In this document: positions 5,569-52,568 of the stretch, one piece after another
Numbering within the stretch: position 1 is the stretch's first letter
Layout of the letters: every line of letters begins with the position of its first letter
DNA from: a virus
IMG/VR virus record: IMGVR_UViG_3300025030_000046
Span: 32,001 to 96,000 of that record
Direction: 5' to 3' (one strand)
DNA: 64,000 nt
The notes under the pieces: model-generated
What the model was told of the DNA's origin: nothing
Database searches by the model: none
Seen by the model: the letters and a program-made list of their open reading frames with translations, nothing else
Translations under genes and position numbers: made by a program

Positions 5569-5829
5569 TTTTTATTTCCTCTCTTTATATCTTCAATATT
5601 TTTCAATTCTTCTTGCGTTAATTTTTCTAATTTATACCCATGCAGTTTAGCCATTATTCCCGTGTACCTATCTTCTCCTAGTATTTCTCGAATTGTGAAT
5701 CCTTCTTTTTGCATTGTCATATTCTTCTCCTTTTAATTTTATATTTTACTTAATTGCTATGAAATGAAAATTTTATTGAAATATTGATTTCTACATCCTT
5801 ACTCCTGCAAGGGTTTCATTTTTACAAAT

Positions 5830-6772
5830 TTATTTATTAAGATGTTTTAAAATATGAACAATTACATCAACAGTCCACCCATTACCACATGCTTCATATC
5901 TTTCTTTTTTCTTAATTCCATCAATCAATGTATAATTATCAGGCAATGTTTGAAGCCTTTCAACTTCAATAGGCGTAAACTCACGAATATTATAATTTTC
6001 ATCAATAATACCATTTGGATTAATTCTTCTTAATGTAAAAGCTTTGCCATTACTTCTTACTGCATTTCCAAATTTTTTACTATTTCCTATTTGTGTTGCT
6101 GTATTTTTAAATATACATTTGTTGACTTTTGATTTATCATAATTAGTGTAATCTAATCTAGTCCTCGGCAAGTATGTATGCACAATATTATTTTCAATTA
6201 TGTCATCAATATAAATATGTTTGTCTTTTGGCTGCGTTATATCTGGTATGTTTGTCCAATATAATCTTTCTCTTGATTGAGCTGATACCAATTCACTATT
6301 AATCAATATTGGGCTAACACCTAAAGCATTTGTGATAATTCTCTTCCATTTTTCAGCCATTTTTACATTTTCTAATAAAAAATATTTTGGTTTAACATCT
6401 TTTAAAATTCTTATATATTCCCAAAATAAATATGAATAACCTTCAAATTCAAATCCGTTTTCTTTTAAATCCAAGTATTGGTCTAATGCCGTAATATCTA
6501 TTTTGTCTTTTGTAGACATTCCTCTCATTGACCCTGCAAATGAAAATGACTGACATGGACTACCCCCCAATTATAATATCTATATTTCTATAATCTTTCA
6601 CATTAATATCTCTTACATCACCTATTTCCACCGTATTTGGAAAGTTCTTCTTTGTAATATTAATAGAATAATCACAAATTTCACTTGCATAATATTTTTC
6701 TACTGGAATATCTGCCCTCTGTAAAGCTAATTGCCCACAGCTAATTCCATCAAACAAACTTAATACATTCAT
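5830..6772 (-). pseudogene. C5-cytosine DNA methyltransferase split by +1 frameshift in a G6 tract
   Basis: N-part LSLFDGISCG...IIIGG* and C-part GGSPCQ...LENV...RERLYW...GNGW join if one G is removed from 6563-6568. Confidence 0.88.
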
Positions 6773-7169
6773 TTTTACCTCACTGTTTTATATTTTACTT
6801 AATTGCTTTAAAACGAGAATTTTACTGTATTTTTTCTTCTCATTTTTATACTAATACGGCATCATAACTCCAAAATTCCCTTTTGCAATTAATTTATCTA
6901 CAATAATTGAATCATTATGCTTTAAGTCTTCTTTTCCAAGAACATTAAAACATTGTGCTAATATATCGCATTGGAAAGAAGTAAATTCTTCTTTGTTTTG
7001 TAATATAGCCCGCATATTTTTTTAAATTACCTTTTCTAATTTCATTACTCATTGTTTTTCTCCTTTCTATAAAAATCCGATTTTATTGCAAATTGCATTT
7101 CTGAACACCTACTTTCACTAGGTTTTCAGATTTGCCTATTTTTAAAATTTGCTTATTTTTAAAATTTGC

Positions 7170-7793
7170 TTATTTTATCTCATCTTTCCATGAATTGTCT
7201 ATTTCTCCAACAGATCTGTAACTAGCAACTGATTTACTTAAAGTTGAGTATAATGAATCTGTACCAACACTACTTGCAGTATAATTTGAAGCAAATTGTC
7301 CTTGGATTCCAAAGTTTTGTGCAGTATCAACTGCATCTATATTTGCTCCTAAAAATAAGAACTGCCAATTGTACTGATTAGTTTGAAGCTCAATCATTTC
7401 TTTAACTTTAGCTTGAGTAAATTCTCGGCTTGAATTTTCTTGACCATCAGTAGTAATTACGAATATAACTTTAGATGGTTTGTCATTTTCTTCAGTTTTA
7501 CTTAATCTTTCGCCTACAGTATTGATTGTCTTTCCTATTGCGTCCAATAGTGCAGTCATACCTCTAGCAAAATATTGTTTATTGGTTAACTTTTCTACTG
7601 ATTTAATGTCCACTCCATCATGTAAAACTTCATATTGGTCATCAAATAATACTGTTGTTAGAACCGCTTCTCCATCTTCTTGTTTTTGAGTTTCAACAAA
7701 TGAATTAAATCCACCTATTGTATCATTTGTAAGATTACTCATTGAACCACTTCTGTCTAGAATAAAGACTATTTCTGTTAAATTTTCTTTCAT
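7170..7793 (-). CDS. vWA (MIDAS) domain protein
   Basis: ILDRSGSM, GMTALLDAIG, ITTDGQENSS, FLGAN. Confidence 0.9.
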   Translation of the reverse strand: MKENLTEIVFILDRSGSMSNLTNDTIGGFNSFVETQKQEDGEAVLTTVLFDDQYEVLHDGVDIKSVEKLTNKQYFARGMTALLDAIGKTINTVGERLSKTEENDKPSKVIFVITTDGQENSSREFTQAKVKEMIELQTNQYNWQFLFLGANIDAVDTAQNFGIQGQFASNYTASSVGTDSLYSTLSKSVASYRSVGEIDNSWKDEIK

Positions 7794-50680: not shown

Positions 50681-50695
50681 TTCAAACGCCTCCGT

Positions 50696-52501
50696 TTATT
50701 TTAAAACATTTCTAATTATTGCAGCCCTTTGCCAAGTTAGTTTATTTTTCATCCATAAATAGAATGTTATGTAGTCTATTCCTATTTTTTCAGCAACTTG
50801 AAACCATGTTAAATTTTTTAGCTTTATTTCTTTTTCAATTTCATTATTTGGATACATTTTATTACCTCCTAAAATCCATATCAAAGTTATATTTTATTAA
50901 AAATTGGATATTTTTGTTCAATTACATTGCTGAGTATTTTTGAATATTTCGCATTGTGGAAAATTGCTGTGCATACTGTTATAAACCTTGCTTGATTTTC
51001 TGAAAATGCATTACCATTGTTTAATTTGTTATCAAATAAACTTGATAACCACACTTTATTTGAATCAATTCTTGTATATTTCTCTTTTTTAGGTAGTAAT
51101 AAATGCCAGTTATTTTTGATTACGTCCGAATAAACCATTTTTTCCCCACTCTCCTTATCTGTTATTTGTTATACTGCTAATAATTCATTTAATATTTTTA
51201 GATCTGAATTATCCCAATTTAGCTCGATATGGTTTAATATATATGGTTTGTATGTTTCAATATTATTCTTAATTGTATCAAGATAACCGCTATTATTTTG
51301 TCGTGGGATAATTCTATTTTCATTTATAAAAAACATATCAAATAAGTTGTAAATAACCGCTATACCATCATTATTATATTTTGTTTGTATTTCTTTTTTA
51401 ATAGATTCTATTTTATCCCTATATGTTTTTATTTCTTCTTGTTTTTTGGTTTCTTCTTGTTGCTTTATGCCTCTGTTATAGTAAATCTCAATTGTAGTTG
51501 TGTTCATGTTAATAAAAAATTTATCAAGAAATAATTTTTTCCAATATATGTCGCAAGTTTCGTTATGCAAATAAAATAATATTTTTTCAACATAATTTAC
51601 TATAGATACATATTCCTTTTTATCATACGCCATATGTATATTATTAGCCTCATATATAATACTATTATTGTCTGTATTTACTATTTTAATATCTGTTATA
51701 ATGTCATATGTTTCATTTAATGTACTGTTATATTCTGCAACTTTTGCAATAATTCTATAATTATATTCCTCATATATCCCTATAAATTTATTATCATGCA
51801 ATGTTTTAGTAATCATATTGATAAAATCTCCTTTTCATCAAATTTGTTATACTGCAAAGAATAAATACGACCTGTTATACTATATTATATGTTTTATATT
51901 TTGCTTTTATAACTGCCAGAAATTTCTATTTGTTAAATATAAACATATAATATTAATTAATATTGATTCTATAAAAATATATGCTATAATATTCTTGAAT
52001 ACTTTTAAAAGCTTTTTGCTTTTTGGCTTGTTATAATTTACAGGATTATAGCAAGTTTTTTCTATTAATGCATATATAGTCATTAGTTTTTTATTCTCCT
52101 TTCGTTGGTATCTTTTTACGGCTTGTGTGGTTTATTCCTTGCAATTTTTACGTTCTATGGATTGCATAATTTTATATTTTGCTTTATGCAATCTAACAAC
52201 ATAAAAATGTAATTTTATACACATTCGCCAGACTCAAGTATATCAAATCCAGTTTCTACCATAAAATTGCTTCTGCTCTTTAAAATTATTTATTTATTAA
52301 AAAAATTGCAGTATCCTTTACTTCAAATTCATAATTAAAAATTACATTATTCTTATAATTAATAACAAAAGTAGCCATTTTACCATAATAACTTTTTATG
52401 GAACTAGCTGGAATTTTATAGCCCTTATTAATTGCAAATTGTATCATATTGTCATTAATGCAATTTATGTGTAATTTTTTTGACACCATTAATTCAGTCA
52501 T
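50696..52501 (-). other. Small hypothetical ORFs, including an HTH protein (50696-50857) and a 215-aa ORF (51169-51816)
   Basis: QVAEKIGIDYITFY HTH-like motif; ORF track. Confidence 0.6.
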
Positions 52502-52568
52502 TTTTCATTCCTCCAATTATTTAATATAAAATGTCAATTTGATTATGTATTACTTAACCTTATAACTA

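Follow-up and report, generated by a model that had tools for sequence, protein, structure and literature searches.

The window analysed here is a stretch of 64,000 nucleotides, bases 32001-96000 of the single 139,239-bp contig of virus record IMGVR_UViG_3300025030_000046 (29% G+C; hereafter genome G000), and our subject is an 18-bp interrupted palindrome, WTNAAA-N6-TTTNAW, with the 16-bp core TNAAA-N6-TTTNA, which recurs in it between genes. The bases at the start of the contig are repeated at its end. A minus-strand block of about 170 mostly small genes extends from 3.9 kb to 89.6 kb of the genome, and the structural genes then follow on the plus strand; these and all other assignments of genes, coding sequences (CDSs) and junctions in this work rest on crude in-house gene calls. 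Pfam searches of G000 found DnaB, a primase, a single-stranded DNA-binding protein, a DNA polymerase III alpha subunit with an intein, an NAD-dependent ligase and a large serine recombinase. The search with SPbeta proteins using tblastn matched YopP (30% identity), YopQ (26%), MrpR (28%), SprA (27%) and YomM (30%), while no match to AimR or YonO was obtained in G000 at E 1e-3. The YopQ-like and MrpR-like genes form a pair (33343-35591) that adjoins a helix-turn-helix (HTH) repressor gene on the opposite strand, in the order of yopQ-mrpR-yopS in SPbeta. Since these five homologues are present and this gene order is kept, G000 is, judging from its proteins, a distant SPbeta-like temperate phage from groundwater.

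The preliminary description of this DNA, made from its letters alone, had reported about 50 copies of a palindrome with two 6-bp arms around a fixed 6-bp spacer, and this recurrence is borne out: the pattern matches 50 times in the window, as against 11.59 +/- 3.44 (maximum 20) in 100 dinucleotide-preserving shuffles. Forty-seven of the matches lie within 5759-52543, none before 5759 and three beyond 52543 (57184, 61215 and 62295), the last being background level. The spacer length is preferred over 5, 7 and 8 and over all others tried, with 50 matches in the window at spacer 6 and 5-19 at spacers 0-5 and 7-15; over the whole genome the figures are 85 at spacer 6 and 15-38 at other spacers. 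As an abundance of A and T between genes might by itself raise the count of such a motif, the count was repeated in intergenic DNA alone (142 stretches of the minus-strand block, 12,036 nt). There, spacer 6 gave 48 matches and the other spacers 1-14, and a first-order Markov null gave 2.41 +/- 1.58, with a maximum of 8 in 300 runs, so that the proposed enrichment at gene junctions holds against the AT-rich background as well. A motif-free scan of all pairs of 3-mers at spacers 0-12 returned AAA-N6/N7-TTT as the strongest spaced dyad after Shine-Dalgarno (SD) words, with 90 occurrences of AAA-N6-TTT and 102 of AAA-N7-TTT where about 35 were expected. One of the sites listed earlier, at 19512, has no strict match, and the junction there carries an imperfect copy with a 7-nt spacer.

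Of the 47 sites in 5759-52543, 38 are at junctions and nine inside called CDSs (15886, 16809, 23283, 30518, 34626, 36106, 39624, 46723 and 50294). A strict site occurs in 46 of the 131 junctions with a gap of 15-400 nt, and a weight-matrix site (score of at least 9) in 63 of them. Genome-wide, the minus-strand block, which runs beyond the window, holds 58 strict sites outside called CDSs. In 13 of these 58 the stop codon of the preceding gene begins at site position 2, and in 11 it begins 2-4 nt ahead of the site, so that it lies inside arm 1 or at most 4 nt away in 24, in agreement with the earlier statement that it is often found in or beside the arm. On the other side, an extended SD sequence, WGAAAGGAG, often starts directly after arm 2, and in the more distant relative G010 the distance from site to SD is fixed at 2 nt. 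In most cases the SD comes straight after the site and no -10 element is suitably spaced; TATAAA follows 6-8 nt downstream of a subset only. The sites do not overlap promoter-like sequences, and a sigma-70 promoter was rejected as the identity of the site itself, arm 1 being a possible -35 element only at the few junctions where TATAAA stands 6-8 nt past the site. The sites are found at junctions of accessory genes and are absent from the replication and structural modules; the preliminary description had likewise found none between the core replication genes or in the plus-strand arm.

The palindrome is not confined to this genome. A megablast search with 3.6 kb against a phage collection found no close relative, a scan of viral contigs with a single helicase protein gave no match, and a metagenome scan for relatives yielded short contigs only; a scan with the motif pattern led to eight loci, and the motif was evident in L002, L005 and L006. 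The comparisons below use G005, G008, G009 and G010, the close relative L039 and the collinear relative L080; the helicase led to the more distant relatives G009 and G010 and to G005, L039 and L006, which are fragments. SPbeta itself has 42 matches at spacer 6 against 8-17 at other spacers, and 29 at spacer 7. The count is 48 against 8-16 in G009, 44 against 13-27 in G008 (where spacer 5 gives 36, mostly of low complexity), 18 against 4-12 in G005, 11 against 0-6 in L039 and 7 against 0 in L006. G010, with 39% G+C, has 56 at spacer 6 against 2-8, and its 29 at spacer 7 represent a register shift; we read the 29 of SPbeta, by analogy, as a shift of the same kind. Each of phi3Ts and three hybrids has 29-30 copies of the strict form TAAAA-N6-TTTTA, as against two of a backwards control. 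Placement of the site is conserved down to 35% helicase identity. The window also encodes, at 12385-13650, a PARP-like protein (WGR plus PARP catalytic domain) with 114 relatives in viral contigs of very different G+C. Across 95 loci with a PARP-like gene the excess of the motif was modest (272 against 130-244) and limited to some loci, and the palindrome is not general to phages sharing this gene. The literature searched, subscription papers excepted, holds no description of a TAAAA-N6-TTTTA junction element. The early region of SPbeta, a long-studied model prophage of Bacillus subtilis, is thus punctuated by an interrupted palindrome, as are those of its relatives, from Bacillus-type phages through to the groundwater phage with 29% G+C.

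Since the pattern itself forces complementarity at most arm positions, only the free arm positions can test whether the arms pair. At positions 3/16, Watson-Crick pairs were counted in 28 of 69 sites, with 28.1 expected, and at positions 1/18 in 40 of 69, with 36.1 expected; no surplus of pairing at free arm positions was seen in any of five genomes (G000, G008, G009, G010 and G005). G.T and A.C combinations are about equally frequent (12 and 9). Base use in the two arms is a mirror image, and the preference varies by genome: position 3 in G000 reads A40 G15 C8 T6 and the mirrored position 16 A41 G13 C11 T4, A being favoured, while G009 prefers G/C at these positions, with TTGAAA/TTTCAA arms. 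A weak symmetry reaches beyond the arms, inward with T at 7 and A at 12 and outward with C at -1 and G at +20. The N6 spacer has an information content of about zero and no common sequence, and only two identical N6 pairs were found among 85 sites, where 3.5 were expected. The site thus fits a duplex DNA element that would be read by a symmetric protein dimer rather than an RNA hairpin, because it has equivalent and independent half-sites with a shared specificity and a spacer fixed in length and unconstrained in sequence. An RNA hairpin was rejected for its lack of covariation in the five genomes, which also disfavours the RNA processing signal offered as an alternative in the preliminary description. 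A mini-reading frame, ATG AAA NNN NNN TTT TAA, was rejected too; position 3 is mostly A in G000, and the N6 often contains in-frame stops (TAAGAC, TAATAG, TAGTAA).

The comparison of related genomes places the sites at mosaic joints. We compared about 18 kb of the early region of six SPbeta-like phages, with random intergenic positions as null. Of 151 block ends in or close to intergenic DNA, 52 fall within 10 nt of a site centre, where 8.3 +/- 2.8 would be expected, and 43 exactly at site edges (2.1 +/- 1.4 expected). A block end is present in 50 of 61 junctions with a site and in 43 of 98 without (p = 2.5e-6). The left block ends gather at -10 to -8 (27) and the right ones at +8 to +10 (17), with three right ends at -3 and only six ends of either kind between -3 and +3. 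The shared block nearly always spans the entire site plus its N6, whichever flank differs, and in these alignments the site acts like a constant linker that has an exchange point at either side. Among eleven sequences of the window's own relatives the same trend appears weakly, with 15 of 209 block ends no more than 10 nt from a site centre where random positions gave 2.35 +/- 1.5. L039 and L080 are mosaics of the window. The site at 7069 lies in an island of identity, which covers 29 bp at 100% in L039 and 43 bp at 91% in L080, and a second island lies on the site at 5759; in both cases the neighbouring genes are diverged or unrelated. Each of the two relatives has extra genes inserted immediately behind the arm next to the SD, L039 at 5759 and L080 at 19513. 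For window 5000-24999, three groundwater runs (X1, X3 and X4) yield a swarm of contigs from related phages, and relative to the window these show dozens of joints. Since joints of low similarity in metagenomes may stem from other phages, only named ones are used here, for example those at 11005 and 16876; several others link junctions that have the same type of leader, AAAATATAAAA, as in 15940 to 18777 and 15897 to 6776. The preliminary description had stated that gain and loss breakpoints ignoring the sites would speak against gene cassettes, and had expected breakpoints inside the N6 spacer. Gene gain, loss and replacement do end at the sites, and gene units are bounded by them; the cassette idea is to this extent partly supported. 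A crossover within N6 is not supported, as the blocks include all of the site and have their ends at its outer edges, although an exchange between identical sites would escape this test.

We propose that the 18-bp site is a junction palindrome of SPbeta-like temperate phages, a DNA dyad read by a protein and a linker at which modules are exchanged, and we hold the chances that this is right to be about even. A symmetric protein dimer would read the duplex at a pair of equivalent half-sites that lie one helical turn from each other, the spacer being fixed in length and free in sequence. Between the stop of an accessory gene and the ribosome-binding site of the next, the site would form a fixed linker between gene modules, and when an accessory gene is gained, lost or replaced, the exchanged DNA would end at either edge while the site and its own six-base spacer stay. 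The binding partner may be a phage protein; one candidate would be of the recombinase fold, for instance the YopP homologue (56257-57351). Its binding may promote or target the exchange, and the site would then be more than a conserved patch of which recombination makes chance use. The site marks exchange points of accessory genes; in SPbeta-like phages these include genes known to act in defence and counter-defence. Recognition by a dedicated protein, if it occurs, would account for the way in which large temperate phages combine a fixed scaffold with turnover of cargo, and would add a second recombinase-derived DNA reader beside MrpR.

Several observations weigh against this proposal. The block ends of the SPbeta set are not independent, one ancestral event being seen in several genome pairs, and 43 of the 98 junctions without a site have a block end too. 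Such ends, together with contig joints located at AAAATATAAAA leaders or simply between genes, mean that exchange does not require the site. For the window's relatives the difference at the junction level (8 of 13 with a site, 7 of 20 without) is not significant (p = 0.17). Two of the orthologous sites aligned in L080 are broken (21444 and 17073), so single sites are not strongly constrained, and the conservation of N6 at shared junctions, for instance 7069 and 5759, is not clearly beyond the 82-92% identity of the flanks. In three laboratory hybrids of phi3Ts and SPbeta the crossovers fall within stretches of parental identity of 40 bp to 18 kb, and one crossover interval of 40 bp has no site; several identity blocks of the hybrids start or end at sites, which reflects the parental mosaic and not a new event. 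Because the hybrids locate their crossovers only to within a block of parental identity, they give no support either way for site-specific exchange. The tight placement just before the SD throughout the family would also fit a role in expression. Finally, the searches brought out no binding protein for the palindrome: tblastn with 228 crude G000 proteins against G005 and G008-G010 returned only replication proteins as common to G008, G009 and G010, and an HU-like binder was dismissed, G000 having no Bac_DNA_binding gene.

The palindrome might instead be the operator of a dimeric phage regulator within operons, an alternative already offered in the preliminary description, acting as a roadblock that keeps accessory genes silent in the prophage, like a stoperator, or as a timer of early expression, with the mosaic joints as a by-product in the manner of the PeSLs of T4-type phages. 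Symmetric half-sites that do not covary are the signature of a dimeric DNA-binding protein, the sites lie in transcribed DNA past sigma-A-like promoters, directly before SDs and only in the lytic accessory block, and their placement persists in distant relatives. A temperate phage with CI-like and MrpR-like proteins and integrases must silence its accessory block, the laboratory hybrids require no sites, and L5 stoperators (PMC9283540) and PeSLs (PMC2839356) offer precedents. MrpR is described as the master repressor of SPbeta with a recombinase fold, and its ten ChAP-seq peaks all lie at SPBRE, a 15-bp motif (PMC10516654; SPBRE first described in Lazarevic et al., 1999, as cited there). Reading the upstream regions of the ten named target genes in SPbeta, we found AATATGTATA in nine, and the junction palindrome within 220 nt in only three. 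MrpR/SPBRE was therefore rejected as the identity of TAAAA-N6-TTTTA, and since SPBRE differs in sequence, the reported MrpR peaks do not account for the 42 palindromes of SPbeta. The CI-like repressor is an unlikely reader as well; no junction site lies upstream of its gene (32679-33320), whose control region carries a different palindrome with one exact copy in the genome. Avoidance of promoter-like sequences and the broken orthologous sites in the close relative L080 also speak against an operator, which alone would leave unexplained that exchange occurs at either edge of the site with N6 kept; we regard it as the main alternative and as a somewhat unlikely explanation. A signal at the RNA level, either a weak AU hairpin or a landing pad for a protein or the ribosome between stop and SD, serving translational coupling, SD insulation or processing, would agree with the position of the sites within polycistronic units, with the stop often within arm 1, with the extended SD right after arm 2 and with the constant SD distance in G010. 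We consider it very improbable, given that positions 3/16 and 1/18 do not covary in any of the five genomes, that the near parity of G.T and A.C shows no wobble signature of the sense strand, that six A-U pairs, often with one mismatch, are too weak to hold a hairpin, and that mirror-image arm preferences shifting jointly between genomes have no explanation in RNA that does not pair.

The preliminary description had favoured an analogue of integrons, in which units of ribosome-binding site, open reading frame and site are cut out, inserted and reshuffled by the recombinase at 56257-57351 through strand exchange in the 6-bp spacer. The core-site geometry on which it was built, inverted arms around a spacer of 6-8 bp, is indeed found, with the spacer fixed at 6 and the arms mirror images, and it fits a tyrosine recombinase, although each arm has only 5-6 specified bases. 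Indels begin or end right at the sites, a protein of the tyrosine recombinase family is encoded by all five whole or partial genomes examined, and the YopP homologue would be a candidate. A full tyrosine recombinase carries the catalytic set R-K-H-R-H/W-Y. The YopP-family alignment retains the box I R, a K, the first H and the C-terminal Y, and the HxxR arginine is replaced by lysine in six of seven members, which may count against the idea; phmmer found no related solved structure for the YopP-like protein, and tblastn gave no YopP-like hit in G010 despite its 56 sites. Block ends lie at the outer edges and not in N6, which has no shared sequence and is rarely identical between sites, so that homology-dependent exchange between different sites would be blocked. 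About 85 palindromic sites per genome would moreover invite deletions and inversions, no circular junctions were seen among the contigs, and neither an attI/Pc-type platform nor a long attC is present, no search for attI and no test specific to IntI having been made; as to an integrase of that type, the one result is the weak Phage_integrase match of 56257-57351. The gene yopP is counted among the core SPbeta-like genes probably active in lysogeny, which would suit such a role, in a passage that names no function for it (PMC10516654). The site, at 18 bp and with no pairing covariation or conserved spacer sequence, does not match an attC. We judge the integron analogue quite improbable. A variant in which the sites serve as barcoded docking points, a recombinase-fold protein of the YopP or another family binding the arms and only sites with the same N6 in co-resident phages or prophages pairing and swapping, seems to us unlikely. 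Were it true, accessory modules would be swapped in register between relatives with the genome itself unscrambled, and a virus would use site-specific recombination for gene shuffling at the population level, unlike integrons and PeSLs.

To return to the junction palindrome as a protein-read linker, the closest described systems are the PeSLs, the stoperators and SPBRE/MrpR, and the site falls short of defining features in each case. PeSLs of T4-type phages are likewise short conserved intergenic elements, about 50 per genome, found by small genes of unknown function in plastic regions, rare in core modules, and marking end points of insertions, deletions and replacements between relatives (PMC2839356, PMC4122927). 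They differ in being about 100 bp long, with a strong sigma-70 promoter and a terminator stem-loop rich in GC; homologous recombination is given as the route of their exchange, and mini-circles have been demonstrated (PMC2839356, PMC4122927). The junction site is an 18-bp, AT-only interrupted palindrome with a free spacer; it has neither promoter geometry of its own nor support for a stable stem-loop or terminator, and shares with PeSLs the indels of relatives that end at the element. The stoperators of cluster A mycobacteriophages, bound by the L5 repressor, are also tens of protein-binding sites in short intergenic spaces within transcription units, but are asymmetric 13-mers that are bound by a monomer and function in a single orientation to transcription, and the same repressor binds promoters (PMC9283540). 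The junction site is a palindromic dyad absent from the promoter-like and switch regions examined. SPBRE is, like it, a repeated intergenic element of the SPbeta family, and its reader has a tyrosine recombinase fold whose recombinase function is lost; it differs as a 15-bp motif at ten promoter regions (PMC10516654), which reads AATATGTATA in the SPbeta sequence examined here. The window encodes a homologue of MrpR, as SPbeta encodes this SPBRE reader. Integrons resemble the array in that gene-sized, mostly accessory units in one orientation are parted by a palindrome of recombination type. Their attC sites are imperfect palindromes of 57-141 bp, recombined as folded single strands at a conserved G/TT, and lie by attI, a Pc promoter and intI. 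None of these features was seen in G000.

The sites at junctions are listed in Table 1 together with the regulatory and recombinase-like genes discussed above.

Table 1. Features of the window, in window coordinates. Junction sites are strict pattern matches classified by their position relative to the crude gene calls.
Feature	Position	Strand	Basis or remark
Junction site	5759..5776		Gene orientation ATAAAA-TTTTCA-TTTCAT; hairpin-like element just upstream; same N6 in L039 and L080
Junction site	7069..7086		N6 TCGGAT in gene orientation; identity island in two relatives
Junction site	7822..7839		Abuts stop at 7840; same N6 in L039
Junction site	9383..9400		Abuts stop at 9401; L080 homology block begins 9 nt upstream
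Junction site	10222..10239		Abuts stop at 10240
Junction site	11002..11019		Overlaps stop; metagenome contig variant diverges within SD-proximal arm (joint 9649 to 11005)
Junction site	16472..16489		
Junction site	16875..16892		Contigs of three runs (X1, X3, X4) diverge at edge (joint 19589 to 16876)
Junction site	17073..17090		End of 0.57-kb non-coding stretch; L080 block stops here
Junction site	17620..17637		Overlaps stop at 17634
Junction site	20919..20936		
Junction site	21444..21461		Arm 1 degenerate in L080
Junction site	21914..21931		
Junction site	23338..23355		
Junction site	23977..23994		
Junction site	24145..24162		
Junction site	25250..25267		Followed by hairpin-like element
Junction site	29264..29281		
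Junction site	30923..30940		
Junction site	31605..31639		Two overlapping pattern matches (31605, 31622)
CI-like repressor	32679..33320	+	HTH_3 and Peptidase_S24; only plus-strand gene in block
MrpR-like repressor with recombinase fold	33343..34284	-	MrpR_N_CB E 5.5e-20, MrpR_C_cat E 4.2e-15; 28% identity to SPbeta MrpR
YopQ-like protein	34299..35591	-	Upstream partner of MrpR-like gene as in SPbeta; 26% over 419 aa, E 1.7e-31; synteny
Junction site	36847..36864		
Junction site	37596..37613		
Junction site	38920..38937		
Junction site	39170..39187		
Junction site	40123..40140		
Junction site	40615..40632		
Junction site	41692..41709		
Junction site	42020..42037		
Junction site	42413..42430		
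Junction site	45805..45822		
Junction site	46073..46090		
Junction site	46327..46344		
Junction site	47016..47033		
Junction site	50880..50897		
Junction site	51821..51838		
Junction site	52201..52218		
Site in 5' leader	52526..52543		Between TTGCAA-N17-TATAAT promoter-like sequence and SD
YopP-like protein, tyrosine recombinase family (candidate reader)	56257..57351	-	Phage_integrase E 6e-6, just under cut-off; 30% identity to SPbeta YopP, E 3e-27; family alignment

Other repeats share the intergenic DNA with the palindrome. The word AAAATATAAAA has 37 copies in the window, where 2.2 would be expected (for example 4143-4153, 18788-18798, 25800-25810 and 57704-57714), and is nearly always oriented with the genes, on the minus strand in the minus block and on the plus strand in the plus arm. 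It precedes TTGACA-N17-TATAAT promoter-like sequences by 3-6 nt or else comes immediately before the SD, often including the upstream stop, and by analogy it may be the counterpart in G000 of a promoter-linked repeat such as SPBRE. A second word, TATAACAG, has 30 copies against 4.1 expected, all on the minus strand and limited to a 13.5-kb domain (window 38408-51879); it often reads (G)TATAACAGGAGG, immediately before the start codon. A hairpin-like element, CCTTGC..GAGTAAGG followed by TTCAGAAAT, occurs at window positions of about 5780-5823, 7090-7130, 25200-25240 and 31550-31600, at a fixed short distance from some junction sites and on either side of them, and is 97% conserved in L039. The non-coding stretches 17063-17633 and 16111-16284 contain tRNA-like T-arm sequences, GGTTCAAATCC and GGTTTGAGTCC; ARAGORN called no tRNA anywhere in the window.

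In the control region (32429-32678) between the CI-like gene and the divergent gene 32117-32428 there is a perfect 13-bp palindrome at 32646-32658, which has no second exact copy in the genome. A half-repeat related to it lies at 32609-32622, and both are probably operators of the CI-like protein itself. To the left of the window, at 27517-31872 of the genome (L076:7517-11872), the DNA polymerase III alpha subunit of 1451 aa is split by its intein, which has a LAGLIDADG homing-endonuclease domain. Where the minus arm turns to the plus arm (window 57479-60069), the genes encode a 57-aa Spo0E-like phosphatase, a 305-aa CoiA-like competence nuclease and a protein of 349 aa that weakly matches sigma-70 region 4, which hints at a spore-forming host and at a sigma-like activator of late genes encoded by the phage.

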